Source of the DNA: a virus
Lineage: Duplodnaviria > Heunggongvirae > Uroviricota > Caudoviricetes
Virus record (IMG/VR): IMGVR_UViG_3300031087_000514
Length of the DNA: 64,000 bases
Strand: one strand, 5' to 3'
The stretch's first letter is position 1; each line of letters starts with the position of its first letter. A program made the translations under genes and the position numbers. Below the pieces are notes generated by a model. It saw nothing but the letters and a program-made list of their open reading frames with translations. It was not told the DNA's origin and did not search any database. Positions 1 to 60,886 of this stretch are shown here, in pieces.

Positions 1-510
1 ATGAACCAAATTATTACGATTCGTCGGAATCGTAATGAAATTCTTAGGTTTCTTTCTGGCTTGACATTAGCCATGCTGGGTTTCTATGTTGGACGTAACC
101 TTTTCAATCATGGGCATTGGTATGTTACGTTACTTATTTGTTTATGCATCCTTGTTGAATTGTTGGTTATTACGAAATTTCGCGTTTTCAATGTGGGAAC
201 AGGCGATAGCATTCGCATACTGACTAAGGACAGGATTCCAGTTGCTTTTGCATTGGATGATGACAATGTTTCGGAAATCCCAAGCGTTCCTCTTTCAGAA
301 GTAACAGGTATTCTCATGCATCGTAAAAGCGGCCATAATGTGCTCACTTTTCAGGCGGGTCAAAACACTTTCACTCTTCCTGCTTTCACAAAAATGAAAC
401 CAGATCGGTTGAAATATGATGAGCAAGATTTCTTTGCAGAGTTTATTGATGCTTGTCATGTGCCAAATGCTTTACCCGTAAAAAAACAGATGACGGATTT
501 ATTTATTTAG
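1..510 (+). CDS. hypothetical membrane protein (2 predicted TM helices followed by a possible bacterial PH-like region); may be 5'-truncated by the window edge
   Basis: ORF of 169 aa with a hydrophobic N-terminal third; no recognisable catalytic motif. Confidence 0.4.
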   Translation: MNQIITIRRNRNEILRFLSGLTLAMLGFYVGRNLFNHGHWYVTLLICLCILVELLVITKFRVFNVGTGDSIRILTKDRIPVAFALDDDNVSEIPSVPLSEVTGILMHRKSGHNVLTFQAGQNTFTLPAFTKMKPDRLKYDEQDFFAEFIDACHVPNALPVKKQMTDLFI

Positions 511-601
511 GTAAAAAAGAAGCGAAGCAGTACTTGAAAATCACTGCTTTGGATGTCATCCGCCCGAAGGACTGAAACTGCTGAGTTGTTAGATATAGAG
601 T

Positions 602-1630
602 ATGTCTACTGCTACTGTTACGAAATGCTCTAAGCCTAAGGGAGCTTATTGTCGTTTGCATAACCCTGAGCCAAAAGGATATCAGTCAGCTGAGCAGGCT
701 TTGCAGAAGGCGGAGCAAGATTTTCATAAAACACATCCTGGTATTTCCTTTCAGAAGACCGATGAAACTCGTCATTTACCTGAGGGTGTTCCTGAGAAGA
801 TCGCTGACCATATTGCGTTGAGCAACAAGCAGTTAGCTCATTTAAGCGATGAGCAGAAGAAAGCTTTGAATGGTTATACTGGTTTTGCCGCTGGTGTGTG
901 CAATAGTATTCTCATTTCAAACGAATTCTCTTATGAATACTATGATGAAGCTCCATTATGGAAAGAAGCTCCTGGTGGAGCGTGTGACTTTGTTTCTCGT
1001 GAAGACTTAGTTGACTATATGGAAACAATTGACACTATCCTTGCTCCTCGTCAAACAGAACAACGAGTCGTATACCGAGGCATCCCAATTTATTCATCTC
1101 TTCATGATGAGATTGGCGCAAAGATTGGTAAGAAGCTCGCTTTTTCTGATGAAGAAGGGTTGATGGAAGGACTGAAAGCCTATTACAAGCCTGGTACTGT
1201 TATCAAAAACGAGACCTATTTATCTACGACTCATTCTGCTTTCTACGCTGCTGATAGGGCAGGTAATGAAACTGATACTAAAAATGATTTTTACCAGAGA
1301 AAGAAAGTTCCTCTGGGTATTATGTTTGAGCTAAAAACGAACGCTGGGTTAGATGTTACAGGAGCTGCCCGACATAATGCTTATGAACGCGAAGTCGTGT
1401 TACCTCGTGAAACATACTTCAAGGTTGTGAGCGTAGAAGTAAAGCCTGCGAAGTATGATACAGTTTCAGGCTTCGATCACATCAATGACCCTAATGACCG
1501 TGAGGCGGAGACTTTTACAAACCTTGCTGCTGTTGTGCAGATGGTGGAAGTTGACAAGAACGGTAAAGAGATTCACTCGACCCGTCCTCATCATCCAGAA
1601 CGTCAGATTCGTGACATTATCCCTGAGTAA
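602..1630 (+). CDS. ADP-ribosyltransferase, R-S-E class (Alt/Mod-like), with N-terminal C-x7-C-x2-H motif
   Basis: Arg (VVYRGIP), STT (YLSTTHS) and ExE (YEREVVLPRE) ART triad; N-term MSTATVTKCSKPKGAYCRLHNP; GTTAG box at 588-601. Confidence 0.7.
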   Translation: MSTATVTKCSKPKGAYCRLHNPEPKGYQSAEQALQKAEQDFHKTHPGISFQKTDETRHLPEGVPEKIADHIALSNKQLAHLSDEQKKALNGYTGFAAGVCNSILISNEFSYEYYDEAPLWKEAPGGACDFVSREDLVDYMETIDTILAPRQTEQRVVYRGIPIYSSLHDEIGAKIGKKLAFSDEEGLMEGLKAYYKPGTVIKNETYLSTTHSAFYAADRAGNETDTKNDFYQRKKVPLGIMFELKTNAGLDVTGAARHNAYEREVVLPRETYFKVVSVEVKPAKYDTVSGFDHINDPNDREAETFTNLAAVVQMVEVDKNGKEIHSTRPHHPERQIRDIIPE

Positions 1631-1660
1631 TAGCTGAGTGCCATTTGTTAGGGATACAGT

Positions 1661-2692
1661 ATGACTTCCGCTGCTGATTCTCAATGCTCTAAAGCTCCTG
1701 GTGAACATTGTCGTTTACATAATCCTGCATTTCCAGGAGGTTTTCAGCCGTTTAATCAAACGAGAAAACTGGCAGGCAATGTTCCATATCGTTTGGTGGA
1801 GCACGCTAAGGAAAATAGAGAACGGGCCAAGCATTCGCTCAATGAAAATGAAAGAATTGCAGTAAGTCATTACCCGCATGGCTCTACGGGTAACTTCATA
1901 TCAAAGCTATTACGTAACCCTAATATGGACGTTACTTACCAAAATGAGCGTCCTTCATGGTTAGTCGAACATAGAAGCGTTGAAGCTTTCAATTCCAGAG
2001 AAGAGTTAGTAAGTTATATAGAAACAATGGACACAGCTTTATCTCAACGCACAGAGAATAATCGTATTGTATATAGAGGAATTGATTTTGAATCGGTACG
2101 AGAGCAAATCATAGCAGAGTATGGTAATCCTATTACTGATAACAAACAAGAATGGGATAAAGCTGTTAGCAACTTTTATCACAAAGATAGACTGTTCGCT
2201 TTTTCTAATTACACATCAACAACCTTAGCTCCTACTTATGCCGCTGGATGGATGCCTCCCGGAGAAGATAATAAATCTTATCGTGGAGTTGTTTTTGAAC
2301 TGAGTACTAATGCAGGTCTTGATATTACAGGGCTTGGAGAAAACAGTAGCTATGCACATGAGCGAGAAGTGTTACTTCCTCGTGACGTTTATTTCAAAGT
2401 AGCCAATGTGCAAATAGCTCCTCCGAAATACGATACCCGAGCAGGTATAGAAACTATGCATGAATTAGGGGCCGAATTACAAGAGCATAAGCCTTTTTGG
2501 GGAGATATCGCTGCTGTCATTCAAATGGTAGAAGTTGATAAGCATGGTAACCAGCTCACTCCTGAGGCAAGAGTTCAAAAACACGTTCCTGAAAGAACCT
2601 CTGAGCAGTCTGTTCCTGTTGAGAAACCAGCATCTTCAGAGATTTTCTTCAAAGAATGGCTAAAAGGCTTGAAAAAGCGAAAAAATAAATAA
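1661..2692 (+). CDS. ADP-ribosyltransferase paralog (tandem duplicate of 602..1630)
   Basis: IVYRGID, YTSTTLAP, HEREVLLPRDVYFKV motifs; N-term CSKAPGEHCRLHNP; GTTAG box 1647-1660. Confidence 0.7.
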   Translation: MTSAADSQCSKAPGEHCRLHNPAFPGGFQPFNQTRKLAGNVPYRLVEHAKENRERAKHSLNENERIAVSHYPHGSTGNFISKLLRNPNMDVTYQNERPSWLVEHRSVEAFNSREELVSYIETMDTALSQRTENNRIVYRGIDFESVREQIIAEYGNPITDNKQEWDKAVSNFYHKDRLFAFSNYTSTTLAPTYAAGWMPPGEDNKSYRGVVFELSTNAGLDITGLGENSSYAHEREVLLPRDVYFKVANVQIAPPKYDTRAGIETMHELGAELQEHKPFWGDIAAVIQMVEVDKHGNQLTPEARVQKHVPERTSEQSVPVEKPASSEIFFKEWLKGLKKRKNK

Positions 2693-2702
2693 TGAAAACA
2701 AA

Positions 2703-2748
2703 ATAAGGGGCGAGACTCGAATGAAGTCTCGCCCCTTATTTTGTTTTT
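2703..2748. terminator. bidirectional rho-independent terminator
   Basis: 13-bp GC-rich stem aaggggcgagact/agtctcgcccctt followed by ttattttgttttt. Confidence 0.8.
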
Positions 2749-2974
2749 AGCTTCGTATTTTCCGCTTGTTGGCTTTGTCTACAAGCTTGTTGTATTCAAC
2801 GACTTGTAATAACGCTGCGCGGAGAGCGTCTTCCAGGAATGCGCCGTCCTGGTTGCGGTAGTCTGTGGTGACTGTGATGTGCTCACCATTCACAGTGAAA
2901 CGAATGAAGTTCGCCTCTGGACGCTGTGAAGCGGGAGCGGTCTTGCCGAGATGGAGTGTTACGTTTTTTGACAT
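2747..2974 (-). CDS. hypothetical protein (75 aa)
   Basis: ORF between two terminators/intergenic regions; no motif. Confidence 0.45.
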   Translation of the reverse strand: MSKNVTLHLGKTAPASQRPEANFIRFTVNGEHITVTTDYRNQDGAFLEDALRAALLQVVEYNKLVDKANKRKIRS

Positions 2975-3179
2975 GGTTATCCTTTCAGTTGGTGGTAATT
3001 GACTGAAAAGATAAATTTGTTATCACATGTCGTTTATTGTAGCACTTTCTGTAAGGACTCGTCAAGAGTCATCCAAAAGTATCGGCAAGAATTCTTAAAC
3101 TTAGTACAGTGTAAGCTTTCTCTCCTGAAAAAGATTCTTGCGATACGATAGATAAAGTACACGTCAAAGGAGAACTGAC

Positions 3180-4035: not shown

Positions 4036-4065
4036 TCAGAACTTTTGGGTTCTCTGATAGAATAG

Positions 4066-4479: not shown

Positions 4480-4492
4480 GTTATGTCGATGA

Positions 4493-4538: not shown

Positions 4539-4601
4539 TGAGGTGTTTCACAGAACATTGCTATGGTTTATATACGTACAAAAACAAGTTAGGGGAAAAC
4601 C

Positions 4602-5543: not shown

Positions 5544-5556
5544 GTAAAACGTTATA

Positions 5557-18444: not shown

Positions 18445-18502
18445 CGTTTCGTATCCTTTTTCACATGCGTTTCGTAACTTCTTCTTCGTTAGATATATCA
18501 GC

Positions 18503-19741
18503 ATGACTACCACTCGTAAACCACCTTATTTGCATGCTGACGGTTCAAATTGTTGGACAAAGCATTGCTCCCGCCGCACCAAGGAAAGCAATGATCGTGC
18601 TTCCTTCTTCAAGCAGGTTGAAAAGACCCCAGCTGCGAAGCTTCCTACCAACCTTCCTCCACTGTCAGCGTTCCAGAAAGCTCACGCTGAGGGCCGTATT
18701 GAGAAGTCTGAACACCCAAATTACCCTTACGTGACCTACAAATACGCGCGTACTACGCAGTTCGCTTCTGACTGGGATGATGTCACACTTGCTTCTCGTG
18801 GAATCATCTTTAACAAGGAAACCGGAGAAGTTGTTGCACGTCCATTTGCAAAGTTCTTCAACTACAATGAACCTTCCGTGCCTACTGATAAACTTCATGG
18901 TCGTGTGAGCGTCACTGACAAACTTGATGGTTCATTAGGTATTGGTTACGTTGATGAGGACGGTAAGTTCAACATTGCTACTTCTGGTAGCTTTATCTCT
19001 GAACAGTCTAAACATGCTACTCGTATATACCAAGAGAAGTATGAAGGTAAGTGGAATCCAAATCCAAACATGACATACATGTGGGAAATCATTTACCCTG
19101 AGAACCGTGTTGTTGTCAACTATGGCGATGAGGACGACTTGCACCTTATCGGTGCTGTCAATAAGCGCACTGGTAAGAGCGTCCCATTAGGTGATATCAA
19201 AGAGTGGAAGTGGAAGCGTGCAGAAGAGTACAAGAATATTTCTTCTCTTGACTCTGTACTTGCCACTCCTGACCGTGAGAACCGTGAAGGTTTCATTGTC
19301 CACTACATTGATACTGACACTCGCGTAAAGTACAAGCATGAGCAGTACTTGAACATTCACCGTGTTGCTACTGGTGTTACTTCTAAGACTATCTGGCGCA
19401 AGATGTCTTTGGGTGAAGATATGGACAGCTGGAAGAGTGGAATTCCTGAGGAGTTCACTGACTTCATTTCTGAACGTCAGAACAAAATTCGCGCAAACTA
19501 CGATAATGAAGTCAGTAAAGTTGTTGCTGACCACGCGAAGTTCAAAGCTTCTATGCCTGCTTCATATGAACGTAAAGACTTCGCTGTTACATTGAAGAAT
19601 TCTTCTGTAGTTCCAGCTGAGAATAAACCATTCATTATGAATTATGAATTCAACGGTAAAGTAGCAACAAACGAGGTGCAAGCTCGTAAAATTTGGGAGC
19701 GCATCAAGCCTACCGATGAGGATACTTTCTGGAACATGTAA
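18503..19741 (+). CDS. RNA ligase paralog with about 60-aa N-terminal extension
   Basis: Motif I KLDGS; homologous to 7735..8865 from residue about 60; GTTAG box at 18488 (N10 spacing) supports the 18503 ATG. Confidence 0.7.
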   Translation: MTTTRKPPYLHADGSNCWTKHCSRRTKESNDRASFFKQVEKTPAAKLPTNLPPLSAFQKAHAEGRIEKSEHPNYPYVTYKYARTTQFASDWDDVTLASRGIIFNKETGEVVARPFAKFFNYNEPSVPTDKLHGRVSVTDKLDGSLGIGYVDEDGKFNIATSGSFISEQSKHATRIYQEKYEGKWNPNPNMTYMWEIIYPENRVVVNYGDEDDLHLIGAVNKRTGKSVPLGDIKEWKWKRAEEYKNISSLDSVLATPDRENREGFIVHYIDTDTRVKYKHEQYLNIHRVATGVTSKTIWRKMSLGEDMDSWKSGIPEEFTDFISERQNKIRANYDNEVSKVVADHAKFKASMPASYERKDFAVTLKNSSVVPAENKPFIMNYEFNGKVATNEVQARKIWERIKPTDEDTFWNM

Positions 19742-34709: not shown

Positions 34710-34764
34710 CCTTTGCTCATGTTCTATATTTATCTACCAGTTAGATATAGAACATGAGCAAAGG
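34710..34764 (+). promoter_or_regulatory. 20-bp perfect inverted repeat sequestering the GTTAG box and start codon of the ART gene
   Basis: cctttgctcatgttctatat / atatagaacatgagcaaagg with 15-nt loop; ATG 34754 lies in the 3' arm; no U-run. Confidence 0.5.
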
Positions 34765-35662
34765 CATTAAACAAGCAGATGGAACACTCTGTTACGCAAA
34801 GAATCCAGATACCTGCAAAAACCATGGATCACCGTCACCTTTTGATCTTTTCGAAGCTGCGATGGCGAAAAAGGATATTGGTGGAAGACTCAATGCGCAA
34901 GTGATGTACAAAAAACACATGCATACCCAATTAGCTGCTCAGTTCCAAAATAACAAGCCTGCCGCAACACAGGTAATTTCGGGTTTTAGGGATTACAGTT
35001 CGCAGTCAGTAGAAGCATTGAAGGAATACAATGAAGAATATCAACAAGCTTCTACTAACTGGTCAGATGACCAAAGAACTGCAATCAAAGACTATACAGG
35101 TTTGAGCTACAAGAATGTAAATGAGTTCCTTCGTAATAAAGAGGAATGGTTAGAAAAAGCTACACCTCAATACAAAGATAAGATGGTAGCACATGTTAAT
35201 GAAGTAATTGAGCAGCTTGATTCTGTCATGGATCAGACATCTAATACGAAATCAAGAACTGTGTATAGAAATGTCTCACAAGACACTACGAAGGCTTTCA
35301 CGTCTTCTGAGGAGTTTGCTCATCGTAATGGCTGGGTTGAAGGTAAAGAGGTAGAATTTCCTTCTTATCTTTCAACATCCTACGACCCACACTACATGGC
35401 TCATCAGCTTGGACAGGATGAAAGCGAGCATACAGATGTTGTATTCGTAATGGAAACGAACAAGGGAGTTCCTGTTGATATGACTGCATTAGATGCCAAA
35501 GGTCACACGTATGTGCAAGACGCAGAGCGGGAGATTCTTCTTCCTCGCAGTATGCGTTTCAGGGTCAGTAAAGTAACTCGCAGTGTTGGTTTTGAACCCT
35601 ATGAAGAAAACAACAATAGTAGAGCTGTTTTCCCTCTGACTGTGTATCTTGAAGAGCTGTAG
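34754..35662 (+). CDS. ADP-ribosyltransferase (R-S-E class), third paralog
   Basis: VYRNVS, YLSTSY, QDAEREILLPR motifs; N-term CYAKNPDTCKNHG; GTTAG box 34740-34753. Confidence 0.7.
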   Translation: MSKGIKQADGTLCYAKNPDTCKNHGSPSPFDLFEAAMAKKDIGGRLNAQVMYKKHMHTQLAAQFQNNKPAATQVISGFRDYSSQSVEALKEYNEEYQQASTNWSDDQRTAIKDYTGLSYKNVNEFLRNKEEWLEKATPQYKDKMVAHVNEVIEQLDSVMDQTSNTKSRTVYRNVSQDTTKAFTSSEEFAHRNGWVEGKEVEFPSYLSTSYDPHYMAHQLGQDESEHTDVVFVMETNKGVPVDMTALDAKGHTYVQDAEREILLPRSMRFRVSKVTRSVGFEPYEENNNSRAVFPLTVYLEEL

Positions 35663-36548: not shown

Positions 36549-36807
36549 CGTTGATACTTCTTTCTCATGTTTGGGCTTAAACGGGGTTATCGGTGGTACA
36601 AACACAGGAGAAACACGTCGTTATCGTTTCGTTGCGGAACATAATACTCTTGGATGATTCCATATTTTTCTTGTAAGAATTGCGCTTTTCGAGACATTTC
36701 TTAAGGTCGTTTTATAGAAATGTCTTACTGCGGGGTGAGACAGTACAATATTTTAAAATACGGGAATGACTGGTATCGTTGTATTGTGTAAACGTTAGAG
36801 ATGGTAC

Positions 36808-37851
36808 ATGCCAAAATTAATCATCCTCAGAGGAATCCCTGCGTCAGGGAAATCAACATACGCTCAAAAATGGGTTATGGAAGACCCTGCAAACCGTGTC
36901 CGCATTAACCGCGATGATATTCGTGAAGCGCTCACAGGTGATGCAACAAACCATAGTCGTGAGAAAGAAGTAACACAGTACCAGGAAGCGCTCATTGAGC
37001 GTGCTTTGAAAGAAGGTAAAGATGTCGCTTCTGACAACACAAATTTGAACACCAAATTCTTACCTGATACGATCAAGAAAGCGCAAGCTGTCGGCGCTAC
37101 AGTTGAGCACAAAGACTTCCCTATTACAGTGGATGAAGCTCTTCGTCGTAATGCTGGACGTGAACGCAAAGTACCAGAAGATGTCATTCGCAGAATGTAC
37201 AAGAGTTTAGGCCCTAAGGGTGAGTTCCCAGTGTTCCCTGGCTCATACCCTACGAAACCTTTTACTGCGCCAAACAGCCGTAAGCCAGCTGTCTGCTTCG
37301 ACATGGACGGCACATTGAACGATGTGTCAGGTGTTCGTCACTTCATTGACCCTCAGCCAGGCGCTAAGAAGCGTTTCAAAGACTTTGACTCATTCCACCG
37401 CATGTCTGAGTTTGAACCAGCTCATGAAGCTGTTTTGCAGTTAGCTAAAGATGCTCATGAATCAGGCTATGCTGTCCTCATCACCACTGCTCGTAGCGAA
37501 CCATATCGTGAGACAACACAGAAGTGGTTGGATGACCATAACGTGCCATACGAGAACATTTTCATGCGCGGTGAGAAAGACTATCGTAAAGACTACGATG
37601 TCAAGAAGGACATGTTCACTGAAATTGACAAACACTATGATGTTGTTCGTTGTGTTGATGACAACCCACAGGCTATTCAAGCGTGGAAGGAAAACAACAT
37701 TGCGGTGACAACAGTGCCGTTCAACTATGACGGACGTGAAACTCCTGTCGTCATCAACAACCCATTCCGTTCGGGTGTATGCATCCGTTGCGGCAAACCA
37801 TTCAAAGGTGAAGGCACATTAGGTCCAACCTGCCGAACAAAAGCTGCGTAG
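36808..37851 (+). CDS. polynucleotide kinase/3'-phosphatase paralog with C-terminal Cys-rich tail
   Basis: GIPASGKST P-loop, CFDMDGT HAD motif, C-terminal CIRCGKPF...GPTC; GTTAG box 36794-36807. Confidence 0.8.
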   Translation: MPKLIILRGIPASGKSTYAQKWVMEDPANRVRINRDDIREALTGDATNHSREKEVTQYQEALIERALKEGKDVASDNTNLNTKFLPDTIKKAQAVGATVEHKDFPITVDEALRRNAGRERKVPEDVIRRMYKSLGPKGEFPVFPGSYPTKPFTAPNSRKPAVCFDMDGTLNDVSGVRHFIDPQPGAKKRFKDFDSFHRMSEFEPAHEAVLQLAKDAHESGYAVLITTARSEPYRETTQKWLDDHNVPYENIFMRGEKDYRKDYDVKKDMFTEIDKHYDVVRCVDDNPQAIQAWKENNIAVTTVPFNYDGRETPVVINNPFRSGVCIRCGKPFKGEGTLGPTCRTKAA

Positions 37852-39858: not shown

Positions 39859-41340
39859 TTAGGCAGTTGCAATGCGAGCACGAGTGATAACAGTCTGCTC
39901 ATCGCCATTGAATGTGTCCAAGTCTTTGATAGTTGCACTGGATACAGTAAGCATGTCGCCGGCTTTGAACTCTTTCTCTCCGCTTGCCCACCATTTAAGT
40001 TCTTTTCCTTCATCAGTGGTCATAATAAGGAGAGTCTTGTAGCTGTCTCCGACATTAGGGATGTATGTTGGGATGAGCTGAGCTCGCTTTACTGTTACTG
40101 GCACGTTTCTGAGCTTATCGCCAATTTGACCAACATAACCTTGGGCTCTTGGTCGACTTTCACGTTCCTGGCGAGCTTGCTGCTTTTTCGCAGCAGCAAT
40201 AACGGAAACAACGTAGCCAACATGTTTGTAAGAAACATACTCTTGTGAGAGAAGCGTCTTCATGTTACGACCGTAATCATTATCCGTGTCAAAATGAGTG
40301 GTCTCTATTACGGAAGTCGCCGCGGCCTCATGGTCTTCAAGGTTGATATCGTTGTAACGGTTGTTATTGTTGGATGAGAAGAAGAAACTTTTCACTTCGG
40401 AGGCAGTAGAGTCTTGGCCTGTTTCTCTTTCAAGCATACGGGAACGATACTTCTCACCATTGTCTGAAATGGCCAGAGCTGCGGCTACAACGGATTTTGT
40501 TGGCAGCATGCTGTCCTGGCCACCCCAACGACGTTCACCGCGGTCTAAGTAATCGTCACCTTCTTCTGGGTCATAGTTGAGCGCCCACAAAGCTTTCGGA
40601 CGAACTCCTGAAAATGACTCTAAGCAGTTAGAACCGACCTGCTTGTATTCACCTGTGTCTTTGTTGCGAAGCAGGTAAGTTGATGAACGTCTACGATTAC
40701 TTCCACAGTGGTCACATTCAAAATGTTCAGGGGCATAACCGTTGAGTTCCTGACCAGGAACAACACGGGTGAGCATGGCTCCATCTTCTGTTTTGTCTAC
40801 AGCAGCAACAAAATCCCATCCTCCAACATGAAGCTCGGGATAAGTAAGGCTCATACGAACCATGTTAAAACGGTGACCTTCGTTGTCTTCTTCAACGAAG
40901 TGTTCAACTTCATAGTCGAACCGCTCTTCAACTCCTGCGCGGGTCAGTTTTCTGTTCGCAATATCAATACGGTGAACTGCTTCATCTAGCCTGGAAGCAG
41001 GGAAAACTGAAACGCCTTCTACCTTCTCTTCCACTGAGGCACGTAAACGTTCGCCATCTTCTAACAGCTGCTGGTATTTCTCTTTCTCAGTCCAGTCGTT
41101 GGTCTCAGCAACTTTGTTAGTGAAGAACTCTTGACCACTGTCTGTGGCTGCGTACTCTACGGAGGCTTCTTTGAGTTTTTCTGATAGAGTGTAACGATCT
41201 TGGATGTCAGTGGTCTCTTCTAACTGGGAAGATAAAGCACGGAACTTCTCTTCAACGCGATCTAAGTAAGAAGCGTGTGTTGCACCATGGTAGCGGCAGG
41301 CAGCTTTATTGATTGCTCTGCATTCACGTGTAGTAGTCAT
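39859..41340 (-). CDS. large hypothetical protein with N-terminal C-x7-C-x2-H motif and internal CDHCGS zinc-finger-like cluster
   Basis: N-term MTTTRECRAINKAACRYHGATH; GTTAG box immediately 5' of the ATG (plus 41341-41354, minus strand). Confidence 0.55.
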   Translation of the reverse strand: MTTTRECRAINKAACRYHGATHASYLDRVEEKFRALSSQLEETTDIQDRYTLSEKLKEASVEYAATDSGQEFFTNKVAETNDWTEKEKYQQLLEDGERLRASVEEKVEGVSVFPASRLDEAVHRIDIANRKLTRAGVEERFDYEVEHFVEEDNEGHRFNMVRMSLTYPELHVGGWDFVAAVDKTEDGAMLTRVVPGQELNGYAPEHFECDHCGSNRRRSSTYLLRNKDTGEYKQVGSNCLESFSGVRPKALWALNYDPEEGDDYLDRGERRWGGQDSMLPTKSVVAAALAISDNGEKYRSRMLERETGQDSTASEVKSFFFSSNNNNRYNDINLEDHEAAATSVIETTHFDTDNDYGRNMKTLLSQEYVSYKHVGYVVSVIAAAKKQQARQERESRPRAQGYVGQIGDKLRNVPVTVKRAQLIPTYIPNVGDSYKTLLIMTTDEGKELKWWASGEKEFKAGDMLTVSSATIKDLDTFNGDEQTVITRARIATA

Positions 41341-41409
41341 GTTCTATTTCTAACCAGCGAATCTCACAAAAAACCTTGATTAAGGTGTTTCGGTACGATA
41401 TTATAAAGG

Positions 41410-42177: not shown

Positions 42178-42197
42178 CAACTCGTTAGTAATAGTGT

Positions 42198-43100
42198 ATG
42201 AGTACACAAACAAATCGCTGCCGAGCAAAGCACCCAGAAACATGTTGGAAGCACGGAACCGGGTTAGGCTTTGATGCCAACCGTGAAATCCGTCTTGTTA
42301 TGAAACAAGATCAAGCTTTACACAGCAAGCATGACATCTTCATGAAAGCCATGAAAACATATGACAGTACCCATCTGGCATCTGTTCTCATGGCTTTTGC
42401 TGAAAACTCCTCCACCGTCAATACCGAACGTTTCAAGAAAGCATTGCTTCTTGCTACTGATCTTCACAAGACTGACACTCGAGCTAACCGTGCGCATCAC
42501 GACCGCACACCATACATCGAACACCCTCTTCGTAACACTCTTCGTATCGTACGATACGGCTGTAAAGAAGAAAGTGTCCTTGTTGGATCACTCCTCCATG
42601 ACACCGTAGAGGACCATCCTTGGGAAATTGCACGTAACTACGCAAAAGAAGAACCACGTGATGAACACCATGCTCGTGAAATTGCTTACGACTACATTCG
42701 TAAAACATACGGTAAACGAGCTGCAAAAATTGTTGAAGGCATGTCTAACCCAATTATTGAGAACAAGTATATGCCAGCTGGTGAAAAGAACGTCATCTAC
42801 CGTGACCATGTTCTTGAAGCAATTGAAGACCCAGATGTCGCTATCCCAAAGATTTCTGACTTCACTGACAACGCTCTTTCCTTACACCACACCGAAGCTG
42901 GCATGTCAGCTACATCATTGTACAAGAAATCCACTAAGTATTTGATGGTTATTGACGGCATGATTTCACGAGTCAAGCGAGGATATGTAACAAAAGACCT
43001 TCCTATCTCAGAAGAAGGTTATAAGAACATTCTCTTCCAGCTTGAAGAAGGCAAGCTACGTTTGCTGTTCCTTAATAGAAAATATACTCCTGTCAAATGA
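42198..43100 (+). CDS. RelA/SpoT-type HD-domain (p)ppGpp hydrolase (small alarmone hydrolase) with N-terminal C-x7-C-x2-H motif
   Basis: RTPYIEHPL and SLLHDTVEDH HD motifs; N-term CRAKHPETCWKHG; GTTAG box 42184-42197. Confidence 0.7.
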   Translation: MSTQTNRCRAKHPETCWKHGTGLGFDANREIRLVMKQDQALHSKHDIFMKAMKTYDSTHLASVLMAFAENSSTVNTERFKKALLLATDLHKTDTRANRAHHDRTPYIEHPLRNTLRIVRYGCKEESVLVGSLLHDTVEDHPWEIARNYAKEEPRDEHHAREIAYDYIRKTYGKRAAKIVEGMSNPIIENKYMPAGEKNVIYRDHVLEAIEDPDVAIPKISDFTDNALSLHHTEAGMSATSLYKKSTKYLMVIDGMISRVKRGYVTKDLPISEEGYKNILFQLEEGKLRLLFLNRKYTPVK

Positions 43101-48364: not shown

Positions 48365-49804
48365 ATGTGTAGAAATAAAGAAGAAGGCGGTCGCCGCTGT
48401 ACCGATCACAATGCATTCGGACAGCAGATCAGAAACCTTCAAGCGAAAAAGCAGTATCATGCAAAATATGGTCACACTGACAAAGTAACTTCAGTTGTTG
48501 AAGAAATGGATGCTCTTCGTGACAAGAAGCAGCATCTTTTAGAAGATGGAGGAACTGTTCTTCCATACACGATGCCATTGACCCCGAATGCGGAAAGAGT
48601 CCTCAACCAGCTCCGTGAAGACGGGTATGAGCCTTATGTTGTTGGAGGAAGTGTTCGTGACGCTCTTCTCGGATTAGACTCCAAGGATGTTGACATTGAA
48701 GTCTACAAAGCTACACCAGAAGAAGTCATTGCTTCCCTTCGTAAAATTGGTCAAGTGGATGAAGTGGGTAAATCATTTGGTGTCTTGAAAATCCAAATTG
48801 GGGGAGAAGACTTTGATGTCTCTCTTCCTCGTAAAGACTCTAAAATTGGTGACGGACACAGAGGGTTCACTGTTGAAGTAACTCCTGAACTCTCACTCCA
48901 TGAAGCAACTGCTCGTCGCGATTTCACCATCAATGCTCTCATGTATGACAACGAAATGGGATTCATCGTTGACAAGCACGGTGGTTTGAAAGATTTGGAG
49001 AAAGGTCATCTCCGTCATGTTTCAGAAGCTTTTGATGAGGACCCGCTCCGTGTTCTTCGTGGAGTACAGATGGCTTCACGTTTTGATATGGAACTCCACC
49101 CAGACACAGTAGTCAAAGCTCAAACACTGAAAGACCAGTTCGGTGATTTGGCTCGAGAGCGCGTCCAAACTGAATTCCAGAAGCTGTACCAGAAAGGTAA
49201 AGCTCCTCACAAAGCGTTCAAGCTTTTGCAGGATACAGGTTGGGACGCAAACTTCTCTGGTGTTGCAGAAGTGAATGGAAAATCTCTGCGTCGTAATCTG
49301 CAAAGAACTCAGGAGTTGACTGACCAAGGAGTCATTCCTAAGGAGAAAGGTGCATACATCCTTTCAGCGAACATTGCATCTCATCTGAATGATAAAGATG
49401 CAAGAAACTTCTTGACATACACTACTGTTGGTGATGATTTGAAGAACAAGTCATACAACCTTTCTCGTGTTGAGCTACCAGTGAAGCAAGGAAAAGCTTC
49501 TTTGCGAGCATGGGCAAGAGGCATGCCTCGCCACGTCACCATTCAAGACTGGGTTCTACTCAGTAAAGCCAAAGGTGACAAGGAAGTAGCAGAGCGTATT
49601 GAACGCAAAGCAGAAAAACTTGGCATTTTGCACAGTCCTGAATCTGACATGGTATCAGGAGATGATGTACTTGCTGCTTTCCCTGAACGTAAACCAGGTC
49701 GTTGGATGAAAGAAGCCTTAGATGCAACGCGTAACGCTCAGTACTCTGACGTGTTCCGTGACCGCGAAAAAGGTATTGCCTGGGTCAAAGCAAACATTAG
49801 CTGA
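48365..49804 (+). CDS. cca: tRNA nucleotidyltransferase (CCA-adding enzyme) with about 60-aa N-terminal C-x9-C-x2-H extension
   Basis: VVGGSVRDALLGLDSKDVDIEV head motif; N-term MCRNKEEGGRRCTDHN; AGAAGGAAA RBS. Confidence 0.8.
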   Translation: MCRNKEEGGRRCTDHNAFGQQIRNLQAKKQYHAKYGHTDKVTSVVEEMDALRDKKQHLLEDGGTVLPYTMPLTPNAERVLNQLREDGYEPYVVGGSVRDALLGLDSKDVDIEVYKATPEEVIASLRKIGQVDEVGKSFGVLKIQIGGEDFDVSLPRKDSKIGDGHRGFTVEVTPELSLHEATARRDFTINALMYDNEMGFIVDKHGGLKDLEKGHLRHVSEAFDEDPLRVLRGVQMASRFDMELHPDTVVKAQTLKDQFGDLARERVQTEFQKLYQKGKAPHKAFKLLQDTGWDANFSGVAEVNGKSLRRNLQRTQELTDQGVIPKEKGAYILSANIASHLNDKDARNFLTYTTVGDDLKNKSYNLSRVELPVKQGKASLRAWARGMPRHVTIQDWVLLSKAKGDKEVAERIERKAEKLGILHSPESDMVSGDDVLAAFPERKPGRWMKEALDATRNAQYSDVFRDREKGIAWVKANIS

Positions 49805-50378: not shown

Positions 50379-50395
50379 TCCGTTAGATATAATGC

Positions 50396-51211
50396 ATGGC
50401 GTTGTTCTCTCGGAAACATAAATGCAAAGCAGCTAACCCTGCTGCTTGCACTGATCCTCGTTGCCCAGATAAGAAAGTTCTTTTGCAAGCCTTTGAATCA
50501 GCTTTATCAGAAGGCGATTACCAGAAGATGTTCAACGCAAGGGACGAGATGGAAAAATTCAAGCCTATCTCCATTACTCCTGCGAGAACTCCTGAGGACT
50601 GGGACACGCTTCTTGTCAAGTCAGATGAGAACGAGTATAAAACTGTCAGCATTATGCCAAAGAAGCAAGCTGCTTCCTATGATACCAGTGTCATTCCTCA
50701 GTTCGATTCTTTCTCCGCCATTCAGGAGTACTTTTCCAAGGATAAGAATGTCTTGTTGAAATTGAAAAATTTGGATGAGCAGATGCCAGAAGCACAATGT
50801 ATCTCTCTGAGAGAGTTCTATGTTTCGCCTGCATTGAGAGGGCAAGGAGTCGGCAAATGGATTCTCAATATCATCACAAAGCATGCTGATGACCATGGAG
50901 CTATTCTCTTTTTGACTCCTACCTCGTCAGGTGACAATAAGCTTTCACCTGACCACGTGGATTATGTAAAACGTGCAGTTCAGCATCGTTCTCGTATCAC
51001 AGACTTCTACTCCAAGCATGGTTTCCAACAAAATCCTTTCTGGTTTCCTTGGGGTGGCAAAGATGAACTCACAAACGAACCATGGAATCCTGACAAGCAG
51101 GCTCAAACCCAATTCTCAGAGACCGCAAAAAACTATTTGAGCAACTACACTGTCGCCCAAATGATGAGAAAGCCAGCAGCGGGTTGGCCAAAGCCCTGGG
51201 TAACCCGCTAA
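50396..51211 (+). CDS. GNAT-family acetyltransferase with N-terminal C-x7-C-x-DPRCP motif
   Basis: RGQGVGKWIL motif A; N-term CKAANPAACTDPRCP; GTTAG box 50382-50395. Confidence 0.55.
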   Translation: MALFSRKHKCKAANPAACTDPRCPDKKVLLQAFESALSEGDYQKMFNARDEMEKFKPISITPARTPEDWDTLLVKSDENEYKTVSIMPKKQAASYDTSVIPQFDSFSAIQEYFSKDKNVLLKLKNLDEQMPEAQCISLREFYVSPALRGQGVGKWILNIITKHADDHGAILFLTPTSSGDNKLSPDHVDYVKRAVQHRSRITDFYSKHGFQQNPFWFPWGGKDELTNEPWNPDKQAQTQFSETAKNYLSNYTVAQMMRKPAAGWPKPWVTR

Positions 51212-54701: not shown

Positions 54702-57700
54702 ATGTGTAATGCGATCCGTGATGGCGGTCAACGTTGTGCCGTCCACCAACACACAAGCACAGCTGCTATTCGTACAGTAGCAGCTCATACCGGATTAGAA
54801 GTCCGACAGGTTGAAAGTGTCTTCCGTGAACTCCGCCGTGAAGGTGGACGTAACGCTGCACCAGTGCCGCAATCAACCTTAGATGCCATTCAGACAGAGT
54901 TTCGCACCATTGCTGAGGCTTTACCTGTTCACGCTTTATATGAGCGTCAGATGGCTTCTGCTGCAGAAACCAATGAAGAACAGACTCCTCAGACTCACTA
55001 CGCTTTACAGCGTTTACTGACGCGTTCTACTGAACGTGCTGCGAGCTTACAGGATGCTTTCAACGACTTAGCAAACCGGACAGGATATGCCGCTGAGGAA
55101 CTTCGTTACCGGTATCAGACAGAGTATGCTGCTGTTCCAACAGGTAACGGTGTTGACATCCCAGAGGAAATGACCCCCGCAAACCGAGCACGAGCTCGCC
55201 GGTCAGGTCTTCCTTATGACCGTCCATCAGTTGTTGCTTTCGAACGCACTCGTGAGCTTGCAGAGAGAAATCATGTTTACGAGGAAGCTAACCGTCGTAT
55301 AACATCATGGGAATCTCCTAACGCTGAAAACTCAAGCATTGCAGTCATGGGTTATGATGAAGGGCGTTTGGAACTGTATTTCACAAACGCCCCTGAACAG
55401 CTATACTCTTACCAGAATGTTCCAGAAGACTTGTGGAACCGTCTACGTGAATCTCCTCGTCCAGGAATGATTTATTCACGTAGCATTAGTGGTAATGAAG
55501 AGTTCCAGTATGCCTCAGCAGCAGAAGCTGGACGCGATGCTTACCGTGTTCGCTGTGCAGCTTGTGGACAGTTCCGTGCCGCAGTTCATTCCTGCCCAGA
55601 ACGCGCTCATCGTGAGCGCTTAGTCCGCGCTGGATACACAACTGAGGAAATCGTTGAAGCTTTGGCCAACGGCACTGATGTTGTAGAAGAATCAGTTGCT
55701 TCTGAAACTTCTCATGAATTATTTGCTCGTATTCCTCAGGCCGATTCTGCCGATGAGTCGTCTGTCAGAGAGTTTATTGCTTCTGAACACTTCCAGGAGA
55801 GAATGCCATTCGGTCAAGCTGTCCAAACTGAAAATGGCCGTTGGGTCGTTGATTTAGTTGACTACTCAAACGAAGAGCAATCTGAGAACCCCTTCGGCGA
55901 CAATCGTTTCTTTGACTCTCGTTACAGCTCTATCAATAACCGTGGAACGTCTCGCTGGACTCATGACTTTGCAGACCGTGATAATCCTACCTCAGATGAA
56001 CTCATGGAAATTAGCCAGTACCATACTGCGTACAGAAGTTTATCTGGTGTTAGAACACTGCATTATGTTAACGTTGTGCGCGATAATTTACAAAGCATGG
56101 ATTTCCGCATGCCAGTTCAGGCAAGTTTCACAGGACTTAACTCTCCTGATGATTCAGGCCGCTACCTTCCCTCAGGTACAGTAACTGGGTCTTTGACTCT
56201 TGGACGTTTAGAAGAAGGAGAACGTCTTGAAGATGCTGTTGCCCGTGAGCGGAACTTGCGTTGTGATTGTGTCGACTACCAGGAAAATTACGACTGTATT
56301 CATGTTCGTACAGTAACTCGTAACCCTTATGTCTTCTTAGCAAACCGCAGTAACCAGTTTATTGAAGGTGAACACCTGCGCGATTACCGTTCAGGTTTCA
56401 TCACTGCGATTTCTGAAGAAGAAAGTATGCGCAGTTACATGCGTGATAACGGCATGACTCGTGAAGAAGCATCGGCAGCGATTGAAGCCGAACGCGCTGA
56501 GCGTCGCCGTATTGAAGAAGAGCAGCAAGCATATTACCAGGCTTCTCTTGCTGACCGTCGCCGTATTGACATGGAACGTGGTACTCGTAATGCACAACGT
56601 TTAGCTACAACTAATGCTGCGGTTATTGCTGAGAATGATGCTCATCGTGCTCGTATGGCTGCTCGTTGGGAAGAAGTTGAACCAGGTTACTCTGATAACG
56701 TGGATGCTTTGTACGAAGACTATGTGACCACTATGCGTCGTCGTCGTGCAGGTGAAGAAGTTCTTGATTACCGTACTGAGAATGTCACTGATGGTATTTG
56801 CTCTCCAGAACCTGGTGGACGTGCGTTTGGTGTTGAGTTAGAGTTCGATATTGACCCAAACACTAACCGTTATCAAGCTCTGCAAACAATTGCTCGTGAA
56901 CTCCACGAAGCAGGTCTTACTGAAAATGACTACCAGACCAGCTACCATTCTGCTCGCAGAAGTGGATGGGGTTCTTGGTCATTTGAAGAAGACTCCACTG
57001 TTTCAGGTGAACTCGTTTCTCCTATCATGCGAGATACTCCTGAACATTGGCAACAGTTGCAGACAGCTCTTGAAATCATCAAGCGTAATGGTGGAATCTC
57101 AACAACACGTACTGGTTCCCACGTTCACATTTCAACAGCATCATACGAATCCTCACCAGCAAAGCACATGGAACTTATTCGTCAGGTAAATGCTAACGAA
57201 GAAATGATGTATCGTTTAGCTTCTAGTCCCGAGCGTGGAAATCACCGTGGTATGCAATGGTGTGGTCCTAACGTAAATACAGGTGTAGATGATATCTCAG
57301 CTGATGTTTCCAGTGCGCATAACGTTATGCATGACCATGTTGGACATGGCTATGCTATGAACTTCGAGTCCACATATCAGCAGGATTACCGTCGTTCAAA
57401 CGTTGAATTCCGTATGTGGGACGGTACCCTTGATGCAGCTGTTATCCAGCGTCAAGTTATGGTTTCTGCTGCTATGACAGACTACGCTGAGCGTAATGTC
57501 ATTGAAAACGGTAGAACTTCTGCTGTTCCTCGTCAAACTGTCGGTGGAGAAAGAGAAGTTCAGCGACAGATTCATACTGGACGTGGACGGTTAAGTCGTG
57601 AACACTTTGAACAAACAATGGGAAACGCTCCTCAATTTATGGACAACCTATTCCGTCGTCAAGAGGACCGTCGTCGTGTTGCTGAGCTGTTCTCCATTAC

Positions 57701-57749
57701 CAATTGGGCTGATTACAGTGACAATTACGAGGAAGACTACGATTACTGA
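54702..57749 (+). CDS. 1015-aa multidomain protein: N-terminal C-x9-C-x2-H motif, internal C-x2-C...H-x-C cluster, C-terminal amidoligase-like (GS-like, GVELEF start) domain
   Basis: MCNAIRDGGQRCAVHQH; FGVELEFDID...RTGSHVHIS; AGAAGGAAAA RBS. Confidence 0.55.
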   Translation: MCNAIRDGGQRCAVHQHTSTAAIRTVAAHTGLEVRQVESVFRELRREGGRNAAPVPQSTLDAIQTEFRTIAEALPVHALYERQMASAAETNEEQTPQTHYALQRLLTRSTERAASLQDAFNDLANRTGYAAEELRYRYQTEYAAVPTGNGVDIPEEMTPANRARARRSGLPYDRPSVVAFERTRELAERNHVYEEANRRITSWESPNAENSSIAVMGYDEGRLELYFTNAPEQLYSYQNVPEDLWNRLRESPRPGMIYSRSISGNEEFQYASAAEAGRDAYRVRCAACGQFRAAVHSCPERAHRERLVRAGYTTEEIVEALANGTDVVEESVASETSHELFARIPQADSADESSVREFIASEHFQERMPFGQAVQTENGRWVVDLVDYSNEEQSENPFGDNRFFDSRYSSINNRGTSRWTHDFADRDNPTSDELMEISQYHTAYRSLSGVRTLHYVNVVRDNLQSMDFRMPVQASFTGLNSPDDSGRYLPSGTVTGSLTLGRLEEGERLEDAVARERNLRCDCVDYQENYDCIHVRTVTRNPYVFLANRSNQFIEGEHLRDYRSGFITAISEEESMRSYMRDNGMTREEASAAIEAERAERRRIEEEQQAYYQASLADRRRIDMERGTRNAQRLATTNAAVIAENDAHRARMAARWEEVEPGYSDNVDALYEDYVTTMRRRRAGEEVLDYRTENVTDGICSPEPGGRAFGVELEFDIDPNTNRYQALQTIARELHEAGLTENDYQTSYHSARRSGWGSWSFEEDSTVSGELVSPIMRDTPEHWQQLQTALEIIKRNGGISTTRTGSHVHISTASYESSPAKHMELIRQVNANEEMMYRLASSPERGNHRGMQWCGPNVNTGVDDISADVSSAHNVMHDHVGHGYAMNFESTYQQDYRRSNVEFRMWDGTLDAAVIQRQVMVSAAMTDYAERNVIENGRTSAVPRQTVGGEREVQRQIHTGRGRLSREHFEQTMGNAPQFMDNLFRRQEDRRRVAELFSITNWADYSDNYEEDYDY

Positions 57750-59989: not shown

Positions 59990-60035
59990 GAAGAAGCTGA
60001 CTGGTATGAAATACGCCAGTCAGCTTCTTCGCGTT
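59990..60035 (+). terminator. hairpin terminator
   Basis: 15-bp stem gaagaagctgactgg/ccagtcagcttcttc. Confidence 0.55.
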
Positions 60036-60046
60036 AGGAATGAATT

Positions 60047-60886
60047 ATGGTCCAAATACAAAAATGCCGTTCAAAAAAGCACTCATTCGGTGGTTGCGGT
60101 GATCCTCGTTGCCCAGAAGGTCTTTCTATTCAAGCCAACATGGATGCCGCTCTCGCAGACAAAGATGTCATGGCATACATTGCAGCAAAACAGCTGAAAG
60201 ATATTGAACCAAACATGGTCTTCGCCAATAAAGGTTTTACTGAACTCCACATTACACATAACAAAGGTACCCATGTTGATGTGTTGAAGTTCATCAACCC
60301 CAGAAAAGAAGCACTTGAATACGTTGAATCCTTAGATCGTACCCATATTCCTTCTTTTGGAACCGTGAAAGACCTTCAAAACTACATCAACGACACGTAC
60401 AATCCATATGCTTCTATGTTTGTTCGTGAATACAAAGGCTACGGTCCGAAGAAAACTATTACACGGTTGAGCGTAGCAAACATGGATGTTGATGCGGATT
60501 TACGTGGAGCAGGAATCGGTTCCTATTTTAGAAAAGTTCTTCTGAAACACTGTGACGAAAAAGGATACATTGTTTCAGGGACTCCAACAAACTCAGGTGA
60601 TGGAAGTATTGAACACCATGACCACAATCATGAAGAGTTCAAACAACATGCGTTGCATCATCGTGCGCGGTTAGAGCATTTTTATGAGCGAAACGGTTAT
60701 GAGCGTAACTACGGCTCTGAACCTGTTATTCATGGCGACCAAGACTTTTGGACAAAACAACAGTTAGAGCAGAACCAATCTTGGGTTGATAAGTTCAACA
60801 AACATGGCCAGGATTTGCTGTACGATGCTGGTGCTTTCGTCCGCTGGCCAAATAATACAGTACCCAAAGAATTGCTTGCTAAATAG
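60047..60886 (+). CDS. GNAT-like paralog of 50396..51211 with N-terminal C-x9-C-x-DPRCP motif
   Basis: LRGAGIGSYF motif A; N-term CRSKKHSFGGCGDPRCPEG; GTTAG box 60033-60046. Confidence 0.5.
   Translation: MVQIQKCRSKKHSFGGCGDPRCPEGLSIQANMDAALADKDVMAYIAAKQLKDIEPNMVFANKGFTELHITHNKGTHVDVLKFINPRKEALEYVESLDRTHIPSFGTVKDLQNYINDTYNPYASMFVREYKGYGPKKTITRLSVANMDVDADLRGAGIGSYFRKVLLKHCDEKGYIVSGTPTNSGDGSIEHHDHNHEEFKQHALHHRARLEHFYERNGYERNYGSEPVIHGDQDFWTKQQLEQNQSWVDKFNKHGQDLLYDAGAFVRWPNNTVPKELLAK

Follow-up and report, generated by a model that had tools for sequence, protein, structure and literature searches.

A start-proximal DNA box and an N-terminal Cys/His tag shared by three ADP-ribosyltransferases and unrelated enzymes of a putative very large phage-like element

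We analysed a window of 64,000 nucleotides from the Caudoviricetes record IMGVR_UViG_3300031087_000514 of IMG/VR, which encodes three ADP-ribosyltransferases (ARTs), here called ART1, ART2 and ART3, the first two in tandem. All three genes start directly after a short DNA sequence, the GTTAG box, and all three proteins carry a Cys-containing tag close to their N-terminus. An earlier note on this DNA had described both as features of the ART family. Each is indeed present in ART1, ART2 and ART3, but neither is particular to the family: box and tag are real, associated with one another and widespread over many enzyme families, being shared with unrelated enzymes of the window and with box-and-tag proteins from metagenomes. 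Because the other enzymes are not homologous to the ARTs, box and tag mark a regulon or an addressing class rather than common ART ancestry. The enzymes themselves are ordinary, new and divergent members of a known ART family. Taking the evidence as a whole, the probable explanation is that they are phage-like take-over ARTs belonging to a regulon defined by box and tag, and this regulon appears to be previously undescribed.

The GTTAG box and the Cys tag

The 17-nt box consensus GTTAGRKATASARYATG has seven matches in the window with no more than two mismatches, against 0.18 expected. When every GTTAG in the window is listed, the pentamer is found exactly 14 nt before the ATG of eight genes, namely ART1, ART2, ART3, the genes starting at 36808 (PNKP-like), 42198, 50396 and 60047, and the minus-strand gene 41340. 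Two further occurrences are spaced slightly differently: one is 15 nt ahead of a T4-type RNA ligase gene, counted from its true start (18503), and the other is 17 nt ahead of a gene for a 5'-nucleotidase that lies just outside the window on its upstream side. Positions G-14, T-13, T-12, A-11, G-10, A-7 and T-6 are invariant, so numbered from the ATG, and the core element, GTTAGnnAT, ends 5 nt before it. The TAG of the box is always in frame, and thus the annotated ATG is the sole possible start (602 for ART1). The box is kept before the ART orthologues of two related elements of 776 kb (L008) and 788 kb (L011), and variants in more distant relatives read GTTAT, ATTAG or GATAGGAAT, the last with one extra nucleotide before the ATG.

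To place the box among the other gene starts we took a census of the window, which gave 71 starts, 10 of them with a box and 61 without. A Shine-Dalgarno (SD) match was absent from 9 of the 10 box genes and present in 23 of the 61 others; the exceptions among the box genes are a TTG-start gene at 4602 and the gene at 60047 (g60047), whose only match (AGGA) falls within the box itself. A positional scan found 7 genes in which exactly 6 nt separate a canonical TAnnnT from the ATG, where neighbouring spacings give about 0-3, and 8 genes with TAGnnA at this distance, the background being 0-2. The PARP genes of the window's own contig and of its relative read TACAAT-N6-ATG and TATAAT-N6-ATG. A TAnnnT hexamer some 6-7 nt before the ATG is the promoter geometry of leaderless genes known from Actinobacteria and Deinococcus. 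Since the genome shows this geometry and the box occupies the position of the -10 hexamer, we infer that the box is a -10-type element of a second promoter class, one that would give rise to leaderless or near-leaderless mRNAs. Genes that have TAnnnT-N6-ATG and no SD include those at 12909, 26629, 28794, 6940, 11956 and 57750 (minus strand).

Two other interpretations of the box were tried and rejected. The box is not taken as a substitute for an SD sequence or as a sigma-70 -10/-35 promoter, as a sigma-70 scan was empty upstream of ART1 and ART2 and there is no -35. Nor does a conserved upstream open reading frame (ORF) end at the TAG of the box, the in-frame upstream peptides being, by inspection, unconserved beyond ART1 and ART2. 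A search of both loci (ART1-ART2 and ART3) against Rfam found no known RNA leader, and returned sub-threshold generic hairpin matches on a terminator and a palindrome described below.

The tag of ART1-3 has the pattern C-x7-C-x2-H, and its cysteines are the sole cysteines of ART2 and of ART3. A scan of all ORFs in the window found C-x5-9-C-x2-H at the N-terminus of seven proteins: the three ARTs, g42198 (MSTQTNRCRAKHPETCWKHG), g41340 (MTTTRECRAINKAACRYHG), a CCA-adding-type enzyme (MCRNKEEGGRRCTDHN) and a 1015-residue amidoligase (MCNAIRDGGQRCAVHQ). The GNAT-like proteins encoded at 50396 and 60047 carry a variant ending in C...C-x-DPRCP, and the RNA ligase tag reads ..ADGSNCWTKHC... Altogether the tag is borne by 10 of the 71 genes, comprising 8 of the 10 box genes and 2 of the 61 others (Fisher p = 1.8e-7).

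Conservation of the tag can also be followed within the ART families. In the ART3 family C13, K16, N17, P18, C21 and H24 are invariant at 37% overall identity, and in the ART1 family the tag is mostly C-[SA]-K-P-x-G-x-[YF]-C-R-L-H-N-P. A subset of the ART1 family has instead an MCRGGKDG..RC N-terminus on the same catalytic body, and the N-terminal module is thus exchangeable. By these alignments the tag is under selection, and its spacing of cysteines and histidine is probably that of a small metal-binding knuckle. None of ten tag-bearing N-termini or proteins gave a Pfam match over the tag at E up to 10, a literature search did not find the motif spelling, and a 45-residue tag alignment searched against a database of 5.8 billion proteins gave 28 candidates, none of which scored. 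We also considered whether the actinophage homologues of g41340 (Gordonia phage Stormageddon gp21 and others) carry the tag, and rejected this, as all are without it.

We then searched IMG/VR and the JGI/ENA metagenome contigs with a DNA pattern made of the box, the ATG and the codons of C-x7-C-x2-H. In IMG/VR the 66 pattern loci included a single in-frame ORF, which is chance level. The JGI/ENA contigs gave at least 117 pattern loci, and among the matches listed there were 41 in-frame ORFs of at least 80 residues with an N-terminal Cys pair, several of them on contigs of 725-885 kb. These reduce to at least 32 non-redundant box-and-tag proteins; the 32 listed comprise, by Pfam, 8 PF03496 ARTs, 3 HD_4 proteins (RelA/SpoT-type hydrolases), 1 DnaJ central domain protein and a remainder with no match. 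Among the matches listed, ARTs are therefore the most common cargo of the shared N-terminal module, and the typical tag is C-[RKEQ]-A-K-[ND]-P-x-[TN]-C-[RK]-[YF]-H-G. One contig of 28.5 kb carries five box-and-tag genes.

The earlier note had also drawn attention to nucleotide similarity between the 5' ends of ART1 and ART2. The similarity exists, but it is explained by the box together with the codons of the conserved peptide: the same codon is used at 6 of the 10 identical residues, and there is no extra synonymous-site conservation between the two 5' ends beyond the peptide. The strings quoted for it were slightly wrong, as ART2 reads atgctctaaagc and not ...aa(g/a)cc.

These data bear on whether box and tag need have any common function at all, since they could represent a 5' cassette spread by recombination, or a constraint that leaderless translation imposes on the first codons. 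The exchange of the N-terminal module within the ART1 family and the untagged actinophage homologues of g41340 would fit such an origin, and because the box adjoins the tag, both would move together. However, what is conserved is the protein and not the DNA, with codons differing between tags, and the C/C/H ligands, K, N and P are held invariant at 37% overall identity. Two tagged genes have an ordinary SD sequence and no box. Additionally, the first Cys is set between 1 and 16 residues from the ATG in different proteins, making a fixed mRNA element unlikely. We consider it improbable that the association lacks a common function, and continue with the reading of box and tag as the mark of a regulon.

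Table 1. Coordinates of the ARTs, of their boxes, tags and motifs, and of other features of the window (one feature, as indicated, lies outside it).
Feature	Position	Strand	Remarks
GTTAG box of ART1 (GTTAGATATAGAGT)	588..601	+	ATG directly after
ART1	602..1630	+	342 aa, ATG start, ADP-ribosyltransferase
Cys tag of ART1 (CSKPKGAYCRLH)	626..661	+	residues 9-20
ART1 VYRG	1070-1081		residues 157-160
ART1 YLSTT	1217-1231		residues 206-210
ART1 EREVVLPR	1385-1408		residues 262-269
GTTAG box of ART2 (GTTAGGGATACAGT)	1647..1660	+	17 nt past ART1 stop
ART2	1661..2692	+	343 aa, ATG start, ADP-ribosyltransferase
Cys tag of ART2 (CSKAPGEHCRLH)	1685-1720	+	residues 9-20
ART2 VYRG	2069-2080		residues 137-140
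ART2 YTSTT	2210-2224		residues 184-188
ART2 EREVLLPR	2360-2383		residues 234-241
Bidirectional intrinsic terminator, 20-bp stem	2698..2744		closes the ART1-ART2 unit and a convergent 75-aa gene
Box at 18488, then T4 RnlA-type RNA ligase	18488..19741	+	true start 18503; N-terminus ..HADGSNCWTKHC..
NAD+ cluster	20134-21087, 21824-23335, 27499-28344, 59391-59978		
WGR+PARP gene	4410-5711 of locus L001		just upstream of ART1
Inverted repeat, 26 nt, 92% complementary	34710..34764	+	right arm holds ART3 box, ATG and first 11 coding nt
GTTAG box of ART3 (GTTAGATATAGAAC)	34740..34753	+	
ART3	34754..35662	+	302 aa, ATG start, ADP-ribosyltransferase
Cys tag of ART3 (CYAKNPDTCKNH)	34790-34825	+	residues 13-24
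ART3 VYRN	35261-35272		residues 170-173
ART3 YLSTS	35366-35380		residues 205-209
ART3 EREILLPR	35525-35548		residues 258-265
Box only (GTTAGAGATGGTAC), then PNKP-like kinase/phosphatase	36794..37851	+	no N-terminal tag; Cys-rich C-terminus
Box + tag (MTTTRECRAINKAACRYHG), then phrog_2319 protein (g41340)	39859..41354	-	493 aa
Box + tag (MSTQTNRCRAKHPETCWKHG), then HD / RelA-SpoT-like hydrolase domain (g42198)	42184..43100	+	
CCA-adding/poly(A) polymerase-type nucleotidyltransferase	48365..49804	+	MC-x9-C-x2-H tag; ordinary SD (GAAGGAAA), no box
Box + tag variant (C-x7-C-x-DPRCP), then GNAT acetyltransferase	50382..51211	+	
KTSC + amidoligase protein	54702..57749	+	1015 aa; MC-x9-C-x2-H tag; ordinary SD, no box
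Box + tag variant (C-x10-C-x-DPRCP), then weak GNAT domain (g60047)	60033..60886	+	

Some of the tagged genes deserve comment beyond the table. The 300-residue product of g42198 (42198-43100) matches NCBIfam spoT_relA with E 5e-10, and HD_4 is found in three of its metagenomic box-and-tag relatives; we regard it as a candidate alarmone ((p)ppGpp/(p)ppApp) hydrolase on sequence grounds. The longest ORF of the RNA ligase reaches back to 18428, upstream of the start defined by the box at 18503. The GNAT gene that starts at 50396 was called automatically from 50528, and its tag was lost as a result.

The three ADP-ribosyltransferases

The three ORFs were found at exactly the positions at which the earlier note had placed them, and its assignment of a complete R / S-T-S / E-x-E signature to each is borne out by profile matches and by invariant residues in family alignments. 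The catalytic residues are R159, S208-T-T and E262-R-E264 in ART1, R139, S186-T-T and E234-R-E236 in ART2, and R172, S207-T-S and E258-R-E260 in ART3. Pfam PF03496 (ADPrib_exo_Tox) is the single domain found in each protein, with 29.2 bits for ART1, 46.5 for ART2 and 69.6 for ART3, all above the gathering score of 23.4 bits. In PHROGs the matches are to families annotated as 'Alt-like RNA polymerase ADP-ribosyltransferase' and 'ADP-ribosyltransferase exoenzyme toxin', PHROG 802 ('Alt-like') being matched with E = 1e-8 and 6e-9.

A database search with ART1 returned 106 homologues, every one of them metagenomic, and with ART3 only 6; homologues of ART1 lie on contigs of 638 kb to 1.0 Mb. In an alignment of 29 sequences of the ART1/2 family, ART2 included, R159, S208, T209, E262, R263 and E264 are invariant, as are R172, S207, T208, E258 and E260 in seven sequences of the ART3 family, down to 37% identity. 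Thus both Glu residues of the ExE motif, whose loss in an alignment had been named in advance as a reason to abandon the assignment, are invariant in either family. Beyond the families themselves, the ART1-family profile matches Vis, an ART specific for arginine (E 7.6e-5), in such a way that the columns of YRG, STS and ExE coincide, the alignment of ART3 to Certhrax and VIP2 spans the same R / STS / ExE motifs, and an 'LLPR' motif is aligned between the ARTs and Certhrax, VIP2 and Vis. ART1-3 are members of the R-S-ExE (Alt/VIP2/C3) clade of ADP-ribosyltransferases, and from their intact motifs they are probably active enzymes.

The fold agrees with this assignment. An AlphaFold2 model of ART1 (mean predicted local distance difference test score, pLDDT, 88.3; predicted TM-score, pTM, 0.82) was compared with the PDB by Foldseek, and the top matches were C2-I, C3bot, Certhrax, BECa, Vis, VIP2 and iota Ia, with E about 4e-9, probability 1.0 and TM 0.65-0.73 normalised to C3; CDTa was also among the best. 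With such a list of matches, and with PF03496 itself named after exoenzymes, one may ask whether the ARTs are secreted toxins of C3/VIP2 type directed at eukaryotic actin or Rho GTPases, the tag then being an export signal. Against this, the fold match covers the catalytic core common to the whole clade; by inspection the ART N-termini are hydrophilic, with no h-region of Sec or Tat type; there is no B component among the neighbouring genes and no second VIP2-like adaptor domain; and the tag is found also on cytoplasmic enzymes (RNA ligase, CCA-adding enzyme, HD hydrolase and GNATs). We regard secretion as an exotoxin as very improbable, and the take-over reading is retained.

ART1 and ART2, which share 33% identity over their full length (E 2e-53), represent an old tandem duplication. 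ART3 is a distant paralog, with about 25% identity to each of them (E 6e-12 and 6e-11). A beta-rich C-terminal extension of about 65 residues is conserved in ART1 and ART2 (strands 285-317 in the ART1 model) and absent from ART3, and may have a role in target choice. The C-terminus of ART2 and of its orthologues is a basic amphipathic tail, ..FFKEWLKGLKKRKNK. The number of ARTs also varies between elements: the 776-kb relative has a third tagged ART at the same locus (L008 12959-13924), with an MC-x7-C-x2-H tag, and the ART repertoire of this element and its relatives is large and variable. The description of the ARTs as a diversifying family is plausible, fitting the 25-33% identity between paralogs, the variable copy number and the swapped type of N-terminal tag. 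A short untagged ART of 175 residues is encoded about 8 kb beyond the window end (L007 20044-20571), and the 788-kb relative encodes a tagged ART of 287 residues preceded by the ATTAG variant of the box (L011 3116-3979, minus strand).

Several local features accompany the ART genes. ART1 and ART2 share a reading frame, the spacer being TAA TAG CTG AGT GCC ATT TGT TAG GGA TAC AGT; GCTGAGT precedes the box upstream of both; and a weak 17-nt inverted repeat (1618-1634 / 1640-1656) covers the ART1 stop and the ART2 box. At ART3 the palindrome listed in Table 1 would form an RNA hairpin of -34.6 kcal/mol (z = -12). Such a hairpin would stop translation of read-through transcripts, and a leaderless transcript would not contain it. 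We rejected the palindrome as a conserved regulatory hairpin, as it is missing from a 55%-identical orthologue. Close to ART3, a lipoprotein-like ORF at 35730-36605 (minus strand; longest ORF) has a lipobox, LLAGC, and a long Pro/Thr/Ser-rich linker, and the gene caller retained its C-terminal 129 residues only.

The element and its neighbouring genes

The exact ART1 protein is encoded on contig k141_538707 of ENA assembly ERZ27247428, of 880,603 bp, of which the window is part, and relatives of this element range from 0.64 to 1.0 Mb. Synteny is kept in the 776-kb relative, where signal peptidase, Wzy, NT5C, PARP, ART1, ART2, the 75-residue gene and Band_7 follow one another. We identify the element, with moderate confidence, as phage-like and very large, with a host that expresses its genes in an actinobacterial manner. 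If these elements are phages, they would exceed the published records of 735-841 kb. The element was considered as the published 841-kb phage BF3 and rejected as such, since BF3 has a GC content of 55% against about 44-45% here. NucS, encoded at 14273-14968, adds an actinobacterial flavour despite the GC content of about 44-45%.

The gene content of the window has both cell-like and phage-like components. It encodes DnaK, ClpB, GyrB, NucS and RNase H, with GyrA and DnaG just past its end, and in addition three T4-type or related RNA ligases, two PNKPs and a CCA-adding enzyme. PNKP is closest to that of Streptomyces phages (32-37% identity), the core of g41340 is closest to Rhodococcus and Gordonia phages, and GyrB reaches only about 34% identity with the records of the phage collection searched. 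The neighbourhood also has arrays of small orphan genes of the kind typical of phages. A profile of the ART family found no confirmed relative in 185,579 GTDB species representatives or in IMG/VR; tblastn of ART1 and of the 1015-residue protein against INPHARED phages, and megablast of positions 1-6000 against the same collection, gave no match.

This mixture leaves room for a different carrier. The ARTs could be toxins of a toxin-antitoxin, abortive-infection or inter-element conflict system on a non-viral element, such as a chromosome or megaplasmid; like DarT, CmdT and ParT, they would then attack the cell that carries them or the phages that invade it. Such a reading would account for the cell-like genes (DnaK, ClpB, GyrA/B, DnaG, an MFS transporter, signal peptidase and Wzy) and for the lack of any virion gene in the regions read, and ART-superfamily toxins are frequent in defence systems (PMC9503650). 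However, no macro, ARH, DarG-like or other candidate antitoxin lies beside the ARTs among the called flanking genes of the window and of the syntenic locus L008, and the nearest named relatives are phage Alt-like ARTs. Also against this reading, the family is absent from the GTDB representatives, GyrB is at most about 34% identical to the phage collection searched, and the neighbours are T4-type RNA ligases, PNKPs like those of Streptomyces phages and arrays of small orphan genes. We consider a non-viral conflict system unlikely, and proceed with the phage-like element.

Near the ARTs are genes of NAD+ metabolism, comprising two NAD+ synthases (NadE, one of them above the NCBIfam equivalog cutoff), a PncA-like nicotinamidase, a NadD-like adenylyltransferase and PARP; PncB was not seen in the parts read. 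The cluster suggests recycling of the nicotinamide released by ARTs, or reconstitution of NAD+ against host defence. The RNA-repair genes suggest a defence against host tRNA or anticodon nucleases. The window and 7 related loci gave no tRNA genes. The RNA-repair set (7735-8865 on the minus strand, 15553-16455, 18503-19741, 36808-37851, 47813-48265 and 48365-49804) comprises two ligases of T4 Rnl1 type and a weak RNA_ligase match, two PNKP-like kinase/phosphatases and the CCA-adding enzyme.

Further observations were made on related loci. The 776-kb relative encodes a DNA cytosine methylase of 905 residues that is split by a Hint/intein domain by Pfam (L008 347-3064). Arrays of about 10 tandem paralogous genes of about 140 residues, and several DUF7717 genes, are present on related contigs (L011 11393-15552, minus strand; L010 7787-8607 and 14077-14373). 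In the cultured Gordonia phage Stormageddon (L081 23677-26970) the gene annotated as an ADP-ribosyltransferase, gp19, comes after that of a minor tail protein and two genes ahead of gp21, the homologue of g41340, and neither gp19 nor gp21 nor the minor tail protein has a Cys tag.

Proposed mechanism and comparison with known systems

In ARTs of the R-S-ExE clade the arginine of YRG and the S-T-S/T motif hold NAD+, and the second Glu of E-R-E catalyses transfer of ADP-ribose, with release of nicotinamide. An ExE motif goes with arginine acceptors and Q-x-E with asparagine. Because the first of these positions is E rather than Q in all three ARTs, an arginine acceptor is predicted for ART1-3. 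We propose that during take-over the ARTs would modify arginines of host targets by mono-ADP-ribosylation, with NAD+ as the donor, the targets most likely being host proteins or RNA-linked molecules, as for T4 Alt, ModA and ModB. The dedicated promoter class represented by the box would supply leaderless ART mRNAs, expressed together with those of the other tagged enzymes. The nicotinamide released could be recycled by the element's own PncA-like, NadD-like and NadE enzymes. The weakest step concerns the tag, which may be a metal-binding knuckle that docks all tagged enzymes at a common destination, such as the virion, for packaging and co-injection, or a common partner. By analogy with T4 Alt and with MuF-fused ARTs (PMC9503650), packaging in the virion with co-injection would be the most attractive of these.

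A number of observations weigh against this account at one step or another. The box hexamer has A rather than T at -7, which is atypical for -10 elements of sigma-70 type, and no -35 partner of the box was found. The tag has only three conserved ligands (C, C and H), its MC- variants sometimes have D or N in place of the His, and residues 1-50 of the ART1 model have a pLDDT of only 50-68. The RNA ligase, the CCA-adding enzyme and the 5'-nucleotidase are tagged, and a role as packaged effectors fits them less well. Finally, the approximately 110 kb inspected showed no capsid, terminase or portal gene; as the ART family is also absent from IMG/VR and INPHARED, identity as a phage is a matter of gene content only.

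The same observations can be extended to a bolder proposal, in which the box and the C-x7-C-x2-H knuckle would together form an addressing system, so far undescribed, that belongs to a clade of phage-like elements of about 0.64-1.0 Mb. Its own class of leaderless promoter would turn on dozens of unrelated enzymes, and the tiny metal-binding tag would send them to a single destination. We put this forward tentatively, as a possibility that may well not hold. If it were true, the cargo would comprise ARTs, alarmone-type HD hydrolases, GNATs, nucleotidyltransferases and RNA ligases, delivered by packaging in the capsid or by docking onto one host machine, and the ARTs would be the most abundant cargo of a new logic of effector delivery.

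Multiple ARTs are expected in large phages, and ART1-3 add divergent members with no close relative in any named phage or genome searched. The unexpected part is a regulon-wide code, made of a start-proximal DNA box and a Cys/His tag of about 12 residues, on many unrelated enzymes. If the tag is an address label, it would allow the effectors of an uncultured clade of very large elements to be listed by a sequence rule, and would provide a portable targeting tag and a handle on how giant phages coordinate take-over. Standard gene callers shorten these genes, as in the case of the gene at 50396, which makes the tag invisible in automatic annotation. Additionally, the nearby NAD+ salvage genes tie the use of ARTs to nicotinamide recycling, and this bears on the debate over NAD+ depletion and reconstitution in phage defence.

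The box resembles the leaderless promoters of Actinobacteria and Deinococcus in its geometry, placing T-A-G at -12 to -10. It differs from them in its invariant A-7 and T-6 and in the added G-T at -14/-13, which make it a non-standard -10 hexamer.

The earlier note had compared the ARTs with T4 Alt, ModA and ModB. The comparison is apt in that all belong to the same R-S-E clade, that there are three paralogs per genome with two in tandem, as modA and modB are in T4, and that E-x-E predicts arginine acceptors there and here; orthology is not supported. In 50,697 phage records the best matches of ART2 are alt genes of T4-like phages of RB49/JSE type (30% identity, 53% query coverage, E 4e-7), the similarity being confined to the clade-wide core. 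ART3 matches only weakly (E 1e-4 to 3e-3), to Alt-like ARTs from phages of Vibrio and Shewanella and to a MuF fusion named 'head morphogenesis', in its ART part; ART1 alone has no match in the phages of INPHARED. Unlike Alt, to which they are only about 25-30% identical and only over the catalytic core, the ARTs have neither a long N-terminal region of Alt type nor a capsid-targeting sequence. They carry instead the Cys knuckle and, in ART1 and ART2, the beta-rich C-terminal extension of about 65 residues, and the host type is here leaderless with an actinobacterial flavour.

With C3, VIP2/iota/C2-I/CDTa, Vis and Certhrax the ARTs have in common the fold and the aligned R, STS, ExE and 'LLPR' motifs. 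They differ from toxins of C3/VIP2 type in having no signal peptide (by inspection), adaptor domain or B component, and their genes stand in phage-like surroundings, not in a toxin locus of a pathogen.

A further group consists of the ARTs that phages package in the head, the MuF-fused and polyvalent-protein ARTs of the Iyer/Aravind surveys (PMC9503650). ART3 weakly matches the ART part of the MuF fusion of Raoultella phage RP180, and these systems resemble the one proposed here in the idea of an N-terminal module that directs diverse enzymes to one destination. However, ART1-3 have no MuF or portal domain by Pfam, PF03496 being their only match, and the module here is about 12-20 residues long, based on Cys and His and without a Pfam match. 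A PHROG match of ART2 to 'head maturation protease' covers the ART part of that profile only (349-499 of 513).

Two short peptides offer a further comparison. The SecA-type SEC-C motif is a basic, Gly/Pro-rich Cys...Cys-His zinc knuckle with four ligands, usually at the C-terminus, and the T4 capsid targeting sequence has no Cys and is cleaved by the prohead protease. Neither is known to match the Cys tag in sequence; the likeness is a functional analogy, both being short peptides at a terminus through which otherwise unrelated proteins dock at one partner.

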